Positions 1,500-64,000 of a DNA stretch of 64,000 bases are shown piece after piece. The DNA is taken from IMG/VR virus record IMGVR_UViG_3300025676_000004, positions 1 to 64,000 of that record; one strand, given 5' to 3'. The position numbers and the translations under genes are program-made. Within the stretch, counting starts at the first letter, position 1, and every line of letters begins with the position of its first letter. A model generated the notes under the pieces. It searched no databases. It was not told the DNA's origin and saw nothing but the letters and a program-made list of their open reading frames with translations. This DNA is from a virus (taxonomy: Duplodnaviria; Caudoviricetes).

Positions 1500-3947
1500 A
1501 TGAAAACATTTAATAAAATAAAAGAACAAATTTTAATCGAATCCAATCAATGGGTTTTGGGTTTTGATTTTACTGTAGACTATACTAGTAAAGAGGGTCG
1601 TGCAATACAAGACGACCTCATAACCAAATTCAAGAAAATCTATAGTGGTAGTGGTTCTGGTGGTTCAGGATTTGATGTTTCTTTCCAAGGACCAAAGAAA
1701 GAAATTGATAAAGCAAAGAAGTATGTTGAGTCAAAATACAAGAGAGATATTGATAAAAAGTACACGAACTTATATCTTGACGAATCCGTAAAACTGGATG
1801 AAGCAAGTCAACTATTCGGTGGGGACACGAACATTCCTGCCGATAAGAAAACCAAAGGATATATCGAAAGTGGCAGAGCAAAGATTCTAATGAATGTGCA
1901 ATCTTCTCTCCATACTTCTGCTCGGTTTGTTGTGGCCAAAAACCCCAACACAGGTAGCAACCAAGACAAAGTATTGATGTTTACCATCAGTGACCCAGAC
2001 CGTGGTCGCATCAAGATGTTCGCATTCCACGGTAGTCATGTTAGTCATCAAAAGGCGATGGACTTTGCAAAGAGACATAAACTTGTTGCGAAGAAAGATG
2101 CAAAGGGAAATCCTCTCTATGCAAAAGAATCCGTTGAACTGGATGAAGCAAAAGTCCCGGCAATTACATTTGAATTCCCAGATGAACGAAGAGCAAGGCA
2201 ATTTGACTTAGACATTGAAAATTCTGCTATCGGTGTGGGTGACCAAATTGGGAATAGAGTAACCGTCACGGATGTTGAGACTAGGTGGCGTGCCGCTGTT
2301 AAGAAAGCAATGATAAAGAGTAAAGGCACAGTCGTAAAAGAATCCGTTGAAGAAGTAGATGAAATAGTATTTGCTCAACATAAAAAGTTGAAGAAAGCAG
2401 GAGGAAGACAACTCAAAGACCCAAGAACCGAGGTCATGGTAGTTGACGAAAAGGGAAAAGTGATTGTAATCGACAGAAAAGATTTGAAAAAATATGAAAA
2501 AGAAGGTTGGGAACTTGCTGAATCCGTTGAACTGGATGAGCGTTTAGCATACCACCACGAACCAGATGCAAGAATGCGGAAGGGTATCGAAAGTGGTAAA
2601 TATCCAATGGTCGCTTCCAAGAAATCCATTCTGGGTGGTAACACATTGTTTGGTGTTTTCCAATTTACTGGAAAGGCCGCAGGCGGTGGTCCAGAACCAG
2701 GCACAACCAGTGATAAAGGAATGAGATATAGTGTCGATGGATATGTAATGGCAATTGTAGACAAAAAGAACAAGGTTTTGGCCTATTACGGTTCACACCC
2801 TTCCCCTCAAGGTGCAATTGATAAGTACGGCCGATTTCATGGACTTATTGGTGAATCCGTTGAACTGGATGAACGACTAAGTGACAGAGAAATGGATACT
2901 TTCAATAAAGCACACACTGCTCTACATACCAAATATCACAAACAGGCATTACAGATTATTAAGTTTATCGACAGTGTAGAAAAGCATAAACAAAAATGGG
3001 TAGATTCATTTGGTGATTATGTCACTCCGAAAATGAATCCAGAATTGGCGTTGTCTAACCCCAACAGTGTTGAATATCAACAAGGTAGAGGTAGAGGTGA
3101 TTGGTCTTTCCTCATTGGACACGGCAAGGTAAGATACAATAACAGGGATATGCCGTGGAATCCAAAGAGTGGTGAACTTCCATTCGACAAGTTTATGAAG
3201 TTGCTTGATACTTGGAAGTCGGAAACTCTAAGAGAATCCGTTGAACTGGACGAAGTATCTCTGAAAGCAAAAGAATGGATTATTGTGGACAGAAAAACTG
3301 GTAAAGTTCTTTTTGGTCCTGATTCACACGATGCAGTAGAGAAGCAAGCAGAGAAGAAGCACGGTAGAAGATGGAACAACAAACTTACACTCACCCACAA
3401 CAAAGAGAAACTAAAAGTAGGTGAGGTTGACAAGTACTTTAAGAGAAGAGCAGAATCCGTTGAAGTGAATGAAGCAACAAAATGGAAAATGGGCGATGGT
3501 AGACCAAGAGGTGGTTCTCATATAGAGAATATCAGATTTTGGGATTTAACAAAAGATGAATTAGAATATATCATAAAAGATGCCGGCAAGGCAATGAAGG
3601 CAAATCCAAAAGCAAGAAAAGCAACTACTGGACCAGGCAATTGGGCTGACCAAGTTAATGATGCTCATACTGTTCTTGGATGGAGAAAGAAGAACGGTAT
3701 CAAAGAATCCGTTGAACTGGATGAAGCAAAAGCCTGGGATAATATTGTGAAAATCCAACAAGACCATACTGCGAAGAAGATTCACGGTATGTTGGTTGAT
3801 GCTCAAACTGCAAATGCATTGATTACGGTACACGATGCACTCAAAAAGAGTGGCAATAAGAAGACATTCATTGATACCATCAATAAGAATAAAGCAGGAT
3901 TGGTTAAGATGGTAGACTTTGCTTGGAAACAAGTAAGTTTTAAATAA
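1500..3947 (+). CDS. Modular polyprotein, putative internal head (ejected) protein precursor with 8 ESVELDE linkers
   Basis: 815-aa ORF with AAGGA RBS; MKTF...ILIE leader; eight ESVELDE-type linkers separate short basic modules. Confidence 0.8.
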   Translation: MKTFNKIKEQILIESNQWVLGFDFTVDYTSKEGRAIQDDLITKFKKIYSGSGSGGSGFDVSFQGPKKEIDKAKKYVESKYKRDIDKKYTNLYLDESVKLDEASQLFGGDTNIPADKKTKGYIESGRAKILMNVQSSLHTSARFVVAKNPNTGSNQDKVLMFTISDPDRGRIKMFAFHGSHVSHQKAMDFAKRHKLVAKKDAKGNPLYAKESVELDEAKVPAITFEFPDERRARQFDLDIENSAIGVGDQIGNRVTVTDVETRWRAAVKKAMIKSKGTVVKESVEEVDEIVFAQHKKLKKAGGRQLKDPRTEVMVVDEKGKVIVIDRKDLKKYEKEGWELAESVELDERLAYHHEPDARMRKGIESGKYPMVASKKSILGGNTLFGVFQFTGKAAGGGPEPGTTSDKGMRYSVDGYVMAIVDKKNKVLAYYGSHPSPQGAIDKYGRFHGLIGESVELDERLSDREMDTFNKAHTALHTKYHKQALQIIKFIDSVEKHKQKWVDSFGDYVTPKMNPELALSNPNSVEYQQGRGRGDWSFLIGHGKVRYNNRDMPWNPKSGELPFDKFMKLLDTWKSETLRESVELDEVSLKAKEWIIVDRKTGKVLFGPDSHDAVEKQAEKKHGRRWNNKLTLTHNKEKLKVGEVDKYFKRRAESVEVNEATKWKMGDGRPRGGSHIENIRFWDLTKDELEYIIKDAGKAMKANPKARKATTGPGNWADQVNDAHTVLGWRKKNGIKESVELDEAKAWDNIVKIQQDHTAKKIHGMLVDAQTANALITVHDALKKSGNKKTFIDTINKNKAGLVKMVDFAWKQVSFK
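1782..3725 (+). repeat. Eight dispersed in-frame 21-bp direct repeats, consensus GAATCCGTTGAACTGGATGAA
   Basis: Copies start at 1782, 2127, 2340, 2520, 2853, 3234, 3453 and 3705; spacings 345, 213, 180, 333, 381, 219 and 252 bp are all multiples of 3. Confidence 0.95.
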
Positions 3948-3968
3948 AAAGAGAACCGAATGGTTCTC
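3946..3968 (-). terminator. Rho-independent terminator hairpin, U-tract on the minus strand (possibly bidirectional)
   Basis: GAGAACC-gaat-GGTTCTC stem-loop at 3951-3968 with A5 at 3946-3950. Confidence 0.65.
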
Positions 3969-4067
3969 CTATGGTCCTTATAAATAATGTATAAACCTAA
4001 CACAGATATTTAGAATGAGTATCGTGAAGTGTCAAGGATAAAAATTGTTATTTTTGTAAAATAATAT

Positions 4068-58839: not shown

Positions 58840-60369
58840 ATGCCAATTGACTTTTTTGGATTTACTATTGGAAAAAAAGATAAAGCGAATAAAGTTGGTC
58901 TTGAATCCAGTATTCGCCGCCCTGTGTCTTTTGTCCCACCCGATTATGATGATGGTGCTACAACCATCGAAGCAGGAAACTTCTTCGGACAATATGTTGA
59001 CTTTGATGGAAACATCAAGAATGACATAGAACTCATTAAGAAGTACAGAGAGATGTCTATGCACGCCGAAGTAGATAGTGCAATAGATGACATTGTGAAT
59101 GAAGCAATTGTTCAAGATGATATTAAAAAGATGGTTCAAATGGACTTAGAACATGTTGACCTATCCGATAATATCAAAGATACAATGCAGAAGGAGTTTG
59201 GACATATCTTAAAACTCCTTCATTTTACTAGTAGGGGTTATGAACTTTTCCGAAAATGGTATATTGATGGTAAAATGTATTTCCATATTGTAATTGACGA
59301 TAAGAAAAAGAAACAGGGTATTAAAGAATTACGACCAGTAGATTCCACTTCCATCCGAAAGATTCGTAAAGTTGAAAAAGAAACGGGCGAAGGTGGTGTT
59401 AAGGTAATCAAAGATGTGGAAGAATTCTTTGTATACACTGAACAAGATAAAGATGATAGGTTAGGTGGAGTTGATGCCGTGGAAGGTATTAAAATTCATC
59501 CAGACTCAATTCTCTACATTCATTCTGGAATGTATGATATTGATAAAAGAAGGGTATTTGGTAATCTTCATAAATGCATAAAACCCCTTAACCAATTGCG
59601 TATGATTGAAGATGCGGTAGTAATTTATCGTATCTCACGGGCGCCAGAGCGAAGAATTTTCTATGTTGATGTTGGTTCACTTCCAAAAAACAAAGCAGAA
59701 CAATATCTTCGTGACATTATGAATCGGTATAGAAACAAACTAGTTTATGATGTAAATACAGGCGAAATTCGAGATGACAAGAAACATATGTCAATGCTTG
59801 AAGATTTCTGGATGCCACGGAGAGAAGGTGGTAGGGGTACTGAGGTTGATACACTTTCGGGTGGCGAAAATCTTGGTGAGATGGAAGATGTCGAATACTT
59901 CAAGAAGAAGTTATATCGTGCATTGAATGTTCCAATCTCACGACTTGAATCTGACAACGGATTCAATATGGGTCGTTCTTCTGAAATCAATAGAGATGAA
60001 CTCAAGTTTTTTAAGTTCATTGAGAAGCAACGACAGAAGTTTTCTGAATTGTTCCTTCAAGCAATGCGAGTACACCTTCTATTGAAGGGTATTATGAACG
60101 AAGAAGATTGGTATGATATTAAGGATGATATTAAATTTGATTATGCAAGGGATTCGTATTTTACGGAACTCAAAAATAATGAGATTATGACCGAAAGAAT
60201 GAATCTTTTAAGTCAAATGAATGAACATATCGGTAAATATTATTCAATCGAATGGATTAGAAAACATGTCTTGCATCAGAATGAAGTAGAAATGGAAGAT
60301 ATGGATAAGGAAATCCAAACAGAACGAGAGAAGGGTCTATTAACCACAGGAACAGAGGAATACTATTGA
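58840..60369 (+). CDS. gp20: Portal protein gp20
   Basis: NQLRMIEDAVVIYRISRAPERRIFYVDVG, MLEDFWMPRREGGRGTE, RDELKF. Confidence 0.97.
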   Translation: MPIDFFGFTIGKKDKANKVGLESSIRRPVSFVPPDYDDGATTIEAGNFFGQYVDFDGNIKNDIELIKKYREMSMHAEVDSAIDDIVNEAIVQDDIKKMVQMDLEHVDLSDNIKDTMQKEFGHILKLLHFTSRGYELFRKWYIDGKMYFHIVIDDKKKKQGIKELRPVDSTSIRKIRKVEKETGEGGVKVIKDVEEFFVYTEQDKDDRLGGVDAVEGIKIHPDSILYIHSGMYDIDKRRVFGNLHKCIKPLNQLRMIEDAVVIYRISRAPERRIFYVDVGSLPKNKAEQYLRDIMNRYRNKLVYDVNTGEIRDDKKHMSMLEDFWMPRREGGRGTEVDTLSGGENLGEMEDVEYFKKKLYRALNVPISRLESDNGFNMGRSSEINRDELKFFKFIEKQRQKFSELFLQAMRVHLLLKGIMNEEDWYDIKDDIKFDYARDSYFTELKNNEIMTERMNLLSQMNEHIGKYYSIEWIRKHVLHQNEVEMEDMDKEIQTEREKGLLTTGTEEYY

Positions 60370-61193
60370 TGCAATCCACCAATAAAATTATGGATTCTAT
60401 AAAAAATGAAGATGTAAAAACCTTCAAAGATTTATCCAATGATATTCTTCGTCATAAAGTTTCTTTATCAATAGAAGAAAAGAAACAAGAAATTAAAGAT
60501 GTAATGATGAGTGAAGAAGAAGAGGCAGAAGTAAATATGGATTCTCCTGAAATTGCTCTTGACCCAAAACTAGAAAAAGAAATCTGGATTGATTCTTTTG
60601 AGATAAATGGTAAAACAGTTGTCATTAAAGCATTGGGATTAGGGGCAACCAAACCTGTAGTTGTCTATATTGACGATGTACGATGGGAAGTATTTCCTGG
60701 ACCAAAGATTGCTAAACGAGAAGCAAGACGACATATCAAGAAGAGCAAAAGTGTCAAGAACGAAAATCTTGATGTTGATTTTGAATCAATGCTCAATGAA
60801 GTTTCTGTGATGGTAAGTAAACCTGAAGTGGTCAAATGGGTAAAGAAGAACAGAAGAAAATTTGACAATGGTGCAGAGGCCGCATTTGCTGTTGCTGATG
60901 AATTTGGTATGGAAGATGAATTAGAGAACGAAAAGCATTGGATTTGGAGTATCATTAAAAAGATATACAAAGAATCATACGAACCTTTCTCTAATATGCT
61001 AGAATCAAATTCCTTCCGATTAGCAGATAACACTAAAATTAATTTGGATGAAGAACTATCGTCCAAAATTAAACTTGTATATGAACATTTGGAAGATAAC
61101 AATAAAGCCAAATTCAGAGAGGCTTTTGTTATAAATAAAGAAAACCACAACAAAATTATTAAATTTGTTGAAGAGCAGACTAAAGGAACTTGA
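60369..61193 (+). CDS. Prohead core protein (gp67/gp68 position), multi-module
   Basis: Between portal and protease; gp67-like N-terminus; internal MLNE/MLES sites; ATG 60369 preferred over TTG 60366. Confidence 0.6.
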   Translation: MQSTNKIMDSIKNEDVKTFKDLSNDILRHKVSLSIEEKKQEIKDVMMSEEEEAEVNMDSPEIALDPKLEKEIWIDSFEINGKTVVIKALGLGATKPVVVYIDDVRWEVFPGPKIAKREARRHIKKSKSVKNENLDVDFESMLNEVSVMVSKPEVVKWVKKNRRKFDNGAEAAFAVADEFGMEDELENEKHWIWSIIKKIYKESYEPFSNMLESNSFRLADNTKINLDEELSSKIKLVYEHLEDNNKAKFREAFVINKENHNKIIKFVEEQTKGT

Positions 61194-61195
61194 TT

Positions 61196-61366
61196 ATGGA
61201 TACTAGAGATATAATTGATGCATTAAGAAACAATAACTTGGATGTTGCAAGAGATGAAACACAAAAGGTATTGTATAAGAAATCTGGTGAAGGTATGGCG
61301 GATAAAAGGTTGGAAATTTCTTCCACAATAGGACAAAAACAAGAACCAGAGGTAAATGACGAATGA
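61196..61366 (+). CDS. Small prohead core protein, gp67-like (missing from the ORF track)
   Basis: MDTRDIIDALRNNNLDVARDETQKVLYKK...KRLEISSTI, 56 aa; stop overlaps the gp21 start (ATGA). Confidence 0.75.
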   Translation: MDTRDIIDALRNNNLDVARDETQKVLYKKSGEGMADKRLEISSTIGQKQEPEVNDE

Positions 61367-62013
61367 AACTAATTACAGAAACAACAGAAGATGTAAATTA
61401 TATCGTAGAATCGGCTGAAGAAGGAAAAGATAAATCCTACTACATCGAAGGTATCTTTATGCAAGCAGAGCAAAAGAACCGAAACGGTCGAGTTTACCCA
61501 AAAGACACACTAATGAAAGAAGTTTCTCGGTACAGTAAAGACCTTGTAGAAACTAAAAGAGCAATGGGAGAACTTGGTCATCCAGAAGGACCAAGTCTAA
61601 ATCTTGAAAGAGTTTCCCATATCATTACAGAACTTCGAGAAGATAGCAATAATATCATCGGTAAAGCAAAAGTTTTAGATACCCCATACGGTAAGATTGT
61701 AAAGAATCTTATTGATGAAGGTGCTAAACTTGGCGTTTCAAGTCGTGGCATGGGTTCACTTAAAAAGAATGATGACGGTACAAATGTTGTGCAAGAAGAT
61801 TTTATGCTTGCCACCGTTGATATTGTAGCAGACCCTTCTGCACCTGATGCTTTTGTAAATGGTATTATGGAAGGGAAGGAATGGGTATGGAATAATGGCG
61901 TTCTAGAACCTCAAACTATTGAAATTTATGAGAACATTTTATCCAGAGCAGATAAAAATACTATCGAAGAAGCCAAACTTATCGTATTTAAACATTTCTT
62001 GTCTAATATCTAA
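61363..62013 (+). CDS. gp21: Prohead protease gp21
   Basis: YIEGIFMQAE.KNRNGRVY, GELGHP, LGVSSRGMGSL, DIVADPSAPDAFV. Confidence 0.97.
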   Translation: MKLITETTEDVNYIVESAEEGKDKSYYIEGIFMQAEQKNRNGRVYPKDTLMKEVSRYSKDLVETKRAMGELGHPEGPSLNLERVSHIITELREDSNNIIGKAKVLDTPYGKIVKNLIDEGAKLGVSSRGMGSLKKNDDGTNVVQEDFMLATVDIVADPSAPDAFVNGIMEGKEWVWNNGVLEPQTIEIYENILSRADKNTIEEAKLIVFKHFLSNI

Positions 62014-62060: not shown

Positions 62061-63068
62061 ATGTCCAACAAAGACATCCTAGAAACAGCAAAAGAAATCA
62101 TAGAGTCAGAAGTGACTCTTGATGAAAGTACCCCAGAAGTCGAAGCAGACTCAAAGGGTACAGTTAATACAAAGTCTAAAGGCGAGAAGCCAGCAGAATC
62201 ACCATCTGTTAATACTGACAGCATCGAAGATGAAGACATCTACAGTGCTGATGGTGCAGGTGCAAAAGTAAATGAACCAGAAGCAGATGAAGACGAAGCA
62301 GACGAAAATGCTGACTCCGTTGATATGAAAGCATCTTCGGCGGCCGCAACACAAGAGCATATGGATGCTTTGTTCGGTGGTGAAGAACTTTCAGAAGACT
62401 TCCGCAACAAAGCAGAAGTTATCTTCTCATCCGCAATCAATGAGCGTTCAGAAGCAATCCGTTCCGAACTACAAGAAGCATTTGATGCTCAACTTGCAGA
62501 AGAAACTGATAAAATTTCAAATGAACTATCCGAAAAACTAGACGACTATCTAAACTATGTTGTCAAGGAATGGATGGACGAAAATGAAATCGCAATTGAA
62601 CACGGACTCAAGAATGAAATTTCAGAGTCATTCATTGCAGACTTAAAGACACTCTTTGAAAGTCACAACATTGAAGTTCCAGAAGAAAAGTTCGATGCAC
62701 TTGCAGAGGCCAACGAAAAGGTTGAAACTCTTGAAGCAAAACTCAACGAACAACTCGAAAAGAACATTGAACTTTCAAAAGGTAACGAAGAACTAGAATG
62801 TGTAAAGGTATTTGCAGAATCCGCTAAAGATTTAACTGATACTGACACTGAAAAACTTCGCAGTCTTTCAGAAGGTTTAGAGTTTGATAGCGTTGAACAA
62901 TACAACGAAAAATTAAACCTTCTTAAAGATAGTTACTTCAGAGCAACCTCAGAAAACAATGATGATGTTGAAGAAAACACACTTACAGAAGAAACAACAA
63001 ATACTCGACAAATGGATTCATACTTGGATTCAATTACACGAGTAGGAAAATCACCAAGGCAATCGTAA
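62061..63068 (+). CDS. gp22: Prohead core scaffold gp22
   Basis: Acidic coiled coil; ELSEDFRNKAEVIF, DDYLNYVVKEWM.EN, LKDSYF. Confidence 0.93.
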   Translation: MSNKDILETAKEIIESEVTLDESTPEVEADSKGTVNTKSKGEKPAESPSVNTDSIEDEDIYSADGAGAKVNEPEADEDEADENADSVDMKASSAAATQEHMDALFGGEELSEDFRNKAEVIFSSAINERSEAIRSELQEAFDAQLAEETDKISNELSEKLDDYLNYVVKEWMDENEIAIEHGLKNEISESFIADLKTLFESHNIEVPEEKFDALAEANEKVETLEAKLNEQLEKNIELSKGNEELECVKVFAESAKDLTDTDTEKLRSLSEGLEFDSVEQYNEKLNLLKDSYFRATSENNDDVEENTLTEETTNTRQMDSYLDSITRVGKSPRQS

Positions 63069-63135: not shown

Positions 63136-64000
63136 ATGGATGATAAAGCACTATTGGCCGAACAACTTCAAAAGAAGTGGGCGCCAGTTTTAGAACATCC
63201 TGAACTTCCAAAAATTGAGAACAGTTACCGTAAAAATGTAACTACTGTTCTTTTGGAAAATCAGGAACAAGCACTAATGGAAACACCCGCTAACGCAATG
63301 GGTGCAGGAAACTCACCTCATATGGGCGGCGCAGGTAATGTTGCGACATTCGACCCTGTACTTATCTCACTTGTACGCAGGTCAATGCCTAACCTTATCG
63401 CATACGATATCGCAGGTGTTCAACCAATGACAGGTCCTACTGGACTTATCTTTGCAATGCGTTCCAAGTATGTAACACAAGACGGTGCAGAAGCATTTTA
63501 CAACGAAGCAGACACCGATGGTGTTTCTGGTGGTGGTACAGGTACTCACGCAGGTACTGACCCGCTTGGTGGTTCATATACTAGTGGTACTGGTATGGGA
63601 ACAGAAGATGCAGAAGGCAAAACCCCTAACGAAATGGCATTCAGTATTGAACGAGTTGCTGTTGAAGCAAAGAGCCGTATGCTCAAAGCAGAATACAGTA
63701 CAGAACTTGCTCAAGACTTGAAAGCAGTTCATGGTTTAGATGCAGAAGCAGAATTGTCAAATATCCTCTCAAGCGAAATCCTTGCGGAAATCAACCGAGA
63801 AGTTATTCGTACAGTTTATAACCAAGCAAAACTTGGTTGCGACCAAACTGACCTTGCTAACAGTGACGGTGTTACTGTAGACGGTACTGGGGGTAAAACC
63901 GCCGGTGTTTATGACCTGCTCAAGGACTCAGACGGCCGTTGGAGTGCAGAACGCTTCCGTGGTTTGATGTTCCAAATCGAACGAGAAGCAAATGTAATTG
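63136..64000 (+). CDS. gp23: Major capsid protein gp23 (truncated by the window end)
   Basis: AAGGAG RBS; KKWAPVLEH, LLENQE, FDPVLISLVRRSMPNLIAYDIAGVQPMTGPTGLIFAMR, ELAQDLKAVHGLDAE. Confidence 0.97.
   Translation, partial: MDDKALLAEQLQKKWAPVLEHPELPKIENSYRKNVTTVLLENQEQALMETPANAMGAGNSPHMGGAGNVATFDPVLISLVRRSMPNLIAYDIAGVQPMTGPTGLIFAMRSKYVTQDGAEAFYNEADTDGVSGGGTGTHAGTDPLGGSYTSGTGMGTEDAEGKTPNEMAFSIERVAVEAKSRMLKAEYSTELAQDLKAVHGLDAEAELSNILSSEILAEINREVIRTVYNQAKLGCDQTDLANSDGVTVDGTGGKTAGVYDLLKDSDGRWSAERFRGLMFQIEREANVI

Follow-up and report, generated by a model that had tools for sequence, protein, structure and literature searches.

ESVELDE linkers of a mosaic phage polyprotein as candidate prohead-protease sites and recombination joints

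We analyzed a 64,000-nucleotide (nt) stretch of viral DNA, referred to below as the window, which represents the initial 64 kb of a virus contig of 134.8 kb from IMG/VR (IMGVR_UViG_3300025676_000004; estimated completeness 75%). Judging from the identity of its major capsid protein to those of the OM43 phage Melnitz (58%) and the pelagiphage HTVC008M (54%), the source is an uncultured marine T4-like myovirus. Our subject is a mosaic gene at 1500..3947 (+ strand) that encodes a protein of 815 amino acids (aa), composed of a leader and nine modules separated by eight ESVELDE-type linkers. We propose, with a probability of roughly 65%, that the product of this open reading frame (ORF) is targeted to the prohead and processed there by the head maturation protease, that the resulting pieces most likely stay in the head and enter the host, and that the linkers double as exchange joints.

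Results

The ORF starts with ATG and is preceded by a Shine-Dalgarno-like AAGGA sequence. A preliminary description of this DNA, made from its letters alone, had divided the protein into nine modules by eight linkers, and our pattern search returned exactly this layout (all on the + strand): ESVKLDE at 1782..1802 (linker 1, aa 95-101), ESVELDE at 2127..2147 (linker 2, aa 210-216, encoded by the exact 21-mer GAATCCGTTGAACTGGATGAA), ESVEEVDE at 2340..2363 (linker 3, aa 281-288), ESVELDE at 2520..2540, 2853..2873, and 3234..3254 (linkers 4, 5, and 6; aa 341-347, 452-458, and 579-585), ESVEVNE at 3453..3473 (linker 7, aa 652-658), and ESVELDE at 3705..3725 (linker 8, aa 736-742). With the linkers removed, the nine modules measure 52-120 aa (6-14 kDa) and have isoelectric points (pI) of 9.2-10.2. 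They are basic, as had been noted for most of them. But the accompanying claim that they are unrelated to each other does not hold for modules M2 (1803..2126) and M5 (2541..2852; both + strand), which proved to be distant paralogues in a module-to-module comparison (25% identity, E 2e-7); the remaining modules are mutually unrelated outside the linkers.

Among the genes of the 134.8-kb genome, the strict linker motif is confined to the polyprotein gene, and a loose version of the pattern matched eight times in this ORF versus single matches in eight other genes. ESVELDE itself occurs in 99 copies in the 150 best related sequences, next to variants such as ESIELDE, ESVEHLDE, and ESYLNE. Because of this confinement to one gene and the many copies in relatives, the repeated linker pattern is not due to chance. 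Two trivial explanations for the gene were also dismissed: separate translation of the modules was ruled out by the absence of internal starts, and an assembly artefact by the presence of similar mosaics on independent contigs.

The site recognized by T4 gp21 is (L/I)-x-E. Cleavage after Glu at a short motif has been described for gp21 as well as for its homologues in giant phages. Junction logos built from 127-133 module borders agree with the L-x-E character that had been ascribed to the linkers: position P1 is Glu in 84-90% of the borders and P3 is Leu, Ile, or Val in about 78-92%, and [L/I/V]-x-E as a whole is found at 81-88% of them. Inside M2-M9 of the window polyprotein, no [L/I]-x-E is present. 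Across the family, L-[D/N/E]-E is enriched inside modules, which probably reflects linkers missed by the search pattern. A linker-like motif also occurs in scaffold proteins, both in the window (ESEVTLDE) and in the related locus L004 (EVELDE|A). The sequence features expected of a protease-processed viral polyprotein are present, namely a single ORF, a repeated and conserved junction motif, predicted folded units in between, and a protease of the cognate type in the same genome.

The leader comprises 14 residues of the form MKTF…LIE (MKTFNKIKEQILIE, 1500..1541, + strand; final residues L-I-E). Its proposed similarity to a T4-like capsid-targeting sequence (CTS) was upheld by comparison with the T4 CTS, MKTYQEFIAE (PMC8442874). 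Targeting by this T4 sequence depends on residues 4 and 7 and its processing on residues 8 and 10, and a CTS of 10-19 residues is removed from the T4 internal proteins. The pattern is specific for the N-terminus: six genes of the genome start with a CTS-like leader versus 0.07 in shuffled sequences, and not a single internal match was found in 37,044 residues. A seventh leader-like N-terminus, MKSFNEYIDWAKE, belongs to the gene at 134567.

Modules can also directly follow a leader. Single modules stand immediately behind a 10-residue leader in MKSFKELLNE|KTKWKMGD (P0084) and behind a leader in MDSFKNYLNE|KRFGGD (P0106). Moreover, the L031 polyprotein contains an internal MKTYKQLITE in front of a module that, in the genome studied here, is the stand-alone leader-bearing gene 134013-134570. 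Since the same modules start after either element and a leader-like sequence occurs internally in L031, leader and linker are interchangeable module borders. Seven genes of the genome have modules in common with the module pool. One of them, 105655-106449, is a small polyprotein with degenerate linkers; in its relative L056, the linkers are of the canonical ESVELDE type and one more cassette is present.

The head genes of the window are arranged in T4 order and include the gp22 and gp23 homologues, with their putative cleavage sites, and the gp21 homologue that had been named before. The portal protein (gp20 homologue, 58840..60369; Pfam Portal_T4, E 2.7e-175) is followed by the prohead protease (gp21 homologue, 61363..62013; phrog_207, E 5.9e-82), our candidate for the processing enzyme, by the scaffolding protein (gp22 homologue, 62061..63068; phrog_237, E 2.5e-74), the N-terminus of which ends with …IIESEVTLDE, and by the major capsid protein (gp23 homologue, 63136..63999, cut by the window end), with a propeptide ending in …QALME; all are encoded on the + strand. 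In four related loci (L004, L009, L010, and L011), the mosaic gene is flanked directly by the portal and protease genes. L012 is truncated at the contig end, and there the mosaic gene immediately precedes that of the protease. This interval corresponds to the T4 gene 67/68 slot. Together with the shared motif in the scaffold protein of a relative, the position argues for the suspected link to the prohead core.

In the window, the slot is occupied by a 274-aa gene (60369..61193, + strand) with one ESMLNE linker and gp67-like ends, which has a module in common with the L005 polyprotein (E 5e-13), and by a 56-aa ORF (61196-61366). A weak match to phrog_1064 ("prohead", the gp67 family; E 0.02) was obtained for slot genes only, at the N-termini of two of them, and pairwise BLAST of T4 gp67 and gp68 against the window slot gene gave no significant match. 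The sequence of the 56-aa ORF (IIDALRNNNLDVAR) resembles the N-terminus of T4 gp67 (LIEAIKSNDLVAAR) by eye. The cultured relative Melnitz carries three small genes in this slot.

An exhaustive phmmer search against 1.84 billion representatives (E ≤ 0.001) identified 408 cluster representatives related to the polyprotein, most of which match one to three modules at differing positions. Of 223 ends of BLAST high-scoring segment pairs, 168 are no more than 10 aa away from a linker, compared to 23% expected, as would be predicted from the cassette architecture that the preliminary description had envisaged. About 50 viral contigs yielded a non-redundant set of 54 ORFs with linkers (one to eight per ORF; 120-1786 aa), in which we distinguished 112 module families without any fixed set or order. 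M8 (3474..3704, + strand) is the most widespread cassette and M2 the commonest one in the locus set (16 copies including its paralogue M5), with 78 and 58 BLAST matches, respectively, among representatives and loci. Nearly all copies of both come after …[L/I/V]-[D/N/E]-E and before K-E-S/E-V-E-L-D-E, with widely varying neighboring modules; in the 54 ORFs, members of the M2/M5 family were found next to 13 different partners on the upstream side and 13 on the downstream side.

The same borders are visible at the DNA level. The blastn tracts between window and relatives begin and end at linkers, for example, the L005 tract at 1782-2146 (91% identity). Two tracts of L002 (window 1815-2146 and 2853-3255, the latter beginning with linker 5) overlap by exactly one linker to give the order M2-linker-M6, as expected from a recombination event between linkers 2 and 5. 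M2 is 92-93% identical at the nt level (84-90% same codon) to its copies in L004, L005, and L006, which are located in genomic contexts other than that of the window copy, whereas the core genes of these phages are only 63-77% identical to those of the window (40-65% same codon). Because M2 is far more alike than the core genes, these data indicate a recent in-frame transfer of the cassette between phages, bounded by the linker.

The linkers also use unusual codons. Ser is encoded by TCC in 8/8 linkers and Leu by CTG in 6/6 Leu-containing linkers, versus 9.1% of the Ser codons and 4.4% of the Leu codons genome-wide, and neither codon is read by any of the six phage tRNAs. On contigs found by module peptides alone, most linkers likewise correspond to the 21-mer, with no more than two mismatches. 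Exact copies of the 21-mer are present in 53 stretches distributed over about 48 IMG/VR contigs; a locus can contain as many as five of them, and some contigs have two such loci. Between genomes, no synonymous-site excess in linkers over module bodies was observed (77.5% versus 72.5% same codon, p 0.25), because the module bodies themselves were recently transferred. The valid basis for a putative DNA-level constraint is the rare-codon use across non-orthologous linkers, combined with the tract boundaries. We tentatively suggest, at somewhat less than even odds, that ESVELDE is a dual-purpose element, serving as a prohead-protease site and as a 21-nt recombination joint by which head cargo is gained, lost, or traded in frame from a pool of >100 module families that includes enzymes.

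Structure prediction was performed for the two commonest types of cassette. AlphaFold2, based on 34-35 homologues each, predicted a helical domain for M8 (predicted local distance difference test [pLDDT] 84.9, predicted template modeling score [pTM] 0.75) and the succession of a helix, four strands, and a helix with disordered ends for M2 (pLDDT 79.6, pTM 0.72). The linker residues in both models reached a pLDDT of about 37, and the whole polyprotein has a pTM of 0.22 in the ESM Atlas model. Instead of one integrated fold across the linkers, an outcome that the preliminary description had also considered, the models thus depict beads on a string, with M2 and M8 folding alone. The invariant core of M8 across 34 sequences reads G-R-P-R-G…I-E-N…W…K-D…N-P, and its GRPRG stretch is what we take to be reminiscent of an AT-hook.

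Structure and profile searches with the whole protein, M2, and M8, which had been suggested as a check, did not give a significant match to a known family or fold. Pfam and PHROGs did not match the whole polyprotein, nor did blastn and tblastn searches against 50,697 phage records. The M8 profile had no match among PDB sequences, Foldseek against the PDB was not significant for M8 and M2 (best E 0.5-1.1), and a wide VIA-align search with M2 reached a best Z of 4.2, which is within noise. The Atlas neighbors of the polyprotein are unnamed viral clusters only; a DarA_C-related Atlas cluster (TM 0.46) was discarded as too weak for use. Long polyproteins of relatives (up to 1786 aa; L025:3-5360, − strand; L063:5644-9894, + strand; L044:1-2637, + strand) carry recognizable enzyme domains, including a SET (lysine methyltransferase) domain (E 2e-7), HNH_3 motifs, and a cytidylyltransferase-like N-terminal enzyme. 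Because of these domains, the module pool contains enzymes, as does the T4 head with its packaged Alt.

Discussion

According to our proposal, the leader would direct the precursor to the scaffolding core while the head is being assembled, like the T4 CTS. Once activated, the gp21-type protease (61363-62013) would cut after the Glu of the L-D-E, V-D-E, or V-N-E that ends each disordered linker, and also behind the leader, thereby releasing nine small basic proteins (6-14 kDa, pI above 9). These would most likely accompany the DNA, first in the mature head and then into the host, like the internal proteins of T4. In its second role, the linker would provide a 21-nt repeat for the in-frame gain, loss, and exchange of modules between co-infecting phages, which would make the cargo set combinatorial. 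Packaging, gp21 cleavage, retention, injection, and the roles of the modules are steps that we infer, and an anti-defence or host-takeover role of the modules is our guess.

Several results weigh against this proposal. The window polyprotein lies outside the portal-protease slot (portal at 58840), 57 kb away from the head genes. The exact late promoter TATAAATA was not found upstream of its ORF, the closest sequence being TCTAAATA, ~30 nt before the ATG. Family-wide, the modules did not contain significantly fewer [L/I]-x-E sites than expected (z -1.4). In the searches made, none of the modules matched a known internal protein, an anti-defence protein, or a solved fold. Finally, T4 expels the fragments of the gene 67/68 products, and the head-gene context thus fits a scaffold-like fate as well as a cargo.

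The last point leads to a different scenario, in which the protein is a scaffold-like component of the prohead core that is also cut at the linkers, but whose fragments serve assembly only and are expelled ahead of DNA packaging, like those of T4 gp22, gp67, and gp68, so that nothing is injected. Homologous mosaics do occupy the gene 67/68 slot, the weak phrog_1064 matches of two slot-gene N-termini point in the same direction, and T4 gp67 and gp68 are degraded by gp21 to small peptides. We nevertheless regard this scenario as unlikely: the modules are strongly basic folded domains of 6-14 kDa, in contrast to the acidic scaffold protein of the window; 112 families in 54 ORFs without a fixed set or order are unlike an assembly scaffold; relatives encode enzyme domains and not scaffold-like sequence; and the recent exchange of cassettes between distant phages is a pattern typical of conflict genes. 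From module size, basic charge, diversity, and mobility, we therefore favor a retained and injected cargo over expelled scaffold fragments.

Conservation of the linker could also be explained without any cleavage. The protein would then act at full length, in the cytoplasm or the virion, with the linker as a flexible acidic spacer and recombination joint; a DNA-level role alone could account for a 21-nt sequence that is kept in rare codons (TCC 8/8, CTG 6/6) and at which homology tracts end. This explanation, which we judge slightly less probable still than expelled scaffold fragments, does not readily account for the P1 Glu and P3 Leu that are kept even in divergent linkers with other codons and residues (EEVELDE, EDVELDE, AALEE, ESYLNE). 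Furthermore, leaders and linkers are interchangeable before the same module, modules exist as separate leader-bearing genes, and the same motif is present in scaffold proteins, which in T4 are a substrate class of the gp21 protease. Cleavage at the linkers by some other host or phage protease outside the prohead, yielding cytoplasmic products without packaging, would suit the lack of a canonical late promoter directly upstream and the location of the gene among those for nucleic-acid metabolism (HNH, zinc-ribbon protein, exonuclease). It seems highly improbable in view of the leader, which is built like the T4 CTS and N-terminus-specific in the genome, the location of the gene between portal and protease in relatives, and a site that fits Glu-specific gp21-type enzymes.

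Our proposal of a processed head cargo has its closest parallel in the T4 internal proteins. Both systems share a short N-terminal leader of the type MKT(Y/F)…(I/L)-x-E, a genome that also encodes a gp21-type protease and a gp22 scaffold, and small basic products with a repertoire that is highly variable between related phages. In T4, however, each internal protein has its own gene and is cut once, whereas up to nine modules are combined here in one ORF with a repeated internal site. In the searches made with the whole protein, M2, and M8, no similarity to the T4 proteins was detected in sequence or fold. T4 internal proteins are themselves unrelated to one another, and homology is a weak criterion in this case. 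Cargo concatenated in a protease-separable polyprotein, with the junctions as recombination joints, would be a new version of the T4 internal-protein/prohead-core system.

A relationship to T4 gp67/gp68 is suggested by the mosaic genes upstream of the protease in five related contigs, in four of them directly after the portal, as well as by the single linker of the window slot gene (60369-61193) and the weak match of slot genes to the gp67 PHROG. But the T4 proteins are short (80 and 141 aa), with an acidic tail in gp67, while the polyproteins are long, basic, and mosaic, and the one in the window is 57 kb away from the slot. The phages phiKZ, 201phi2-1, and SPN3US likewise have many proteins inside the head (inner-body and ejection proteins) in which gp21-like proteases cut after the Glu of a three-residue motif, at several positions in each precursor, and the leaders of SPN3US gp53 and gp54 even contain ESVE. 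Unlike the polyprotein, these precursors do not string together exchangeable cassettes; they lose long propeptides until one mature domain is left. The motif cut in them is (S/A/G)-x-E instead of L-x-E, and no homology is present. In polymorphic toxin loci (CdiA, Rhs), a short border sequence that is conserved also as DNA allows in-frame module swaps by recombination. Those loci exchange one C-terminal module of a bacterial toxin, in contrast to many internal phage modules with a border resembling a protease site in the present case. In the searchable literature, we found no earlier description of the ESVELDE motif or of the concept of a phage head polyprotein.

Internal head proteins are the first phage products in the host, and those of T4 defeat restriction. 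How phages diversify their head cargo is poorly understood. If our proposal is correct, a tailed dsDNA phage would here employ an unusual expression strategy, a polyprotein cut by its head protease, by which one targeting signal would load many different small proteins in equal amounts. Linker-bounded exchange would represent a concrete mechanism for rapid cargo turnover in abundant marine relatives of the OM43 and SAR11 phages, and the pool of more than 100 families of unknown small proteins would offer candidates for early host manipulation. The leader-plus-linker grammar could also be reused for loading several proteins into T4-type capsids.

Genomic context and other leader-bearing genes

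The G+C content is 40% in the polyprotein gene (window 2001-4000), compared to 35% in its flanks, which fits cassettes derived from a pool common to other phages. Upstream of the gene are an HNH endonuclease (276-794), an FmdB-type zinc-ribbon protein (813-1106), and a conserved acidic 128-aa protein (1103-1489). The same trio precedes the polyprotein gene in L007 and is rearranged in L008. The genome contains 28 exact T4-type late promoter cores (TATAAATA) on both strands, none of them directly upstream of the polyprotein gene. One is located at ~63081, 55 nt upstream of gp23, and others upstream of 4097, 7560, 14750, 51096, and 61196.

Six genes with CTS-like N-termini are located outside the window, three on the − strand of the genome (C1), at 105655-106449 (leader MKNFNDFKNELPIIE), 107692-109722 (MKKVFDFLNE), and 109858-111105 (MKKFTQYIPE), and three on the + strand, at 132545-134035 (MKSFKQYIIE), 134013-134570 (MKSFKEYITE), and 134567-134816 (MKSFNEYIDWAKE). 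One of these six genes encodes a 676-aa nucleotidyltransferase fusion. Several of the six have modules in common with polyproteins of other phages.

A further stretch, NSVGGGMSPHMGGEGNV, follows a leader or linker in the 105655-106449 product (− strand, aa 150-180) and in the N-terminal modules of L002, L026, L042, and L054. It resembles AMGAGNSPHMGGAGNV, the N-terminus of the mature capsid protein of this phage itself (window 63136, + strand), and may represent a shared docking or recognition segment.

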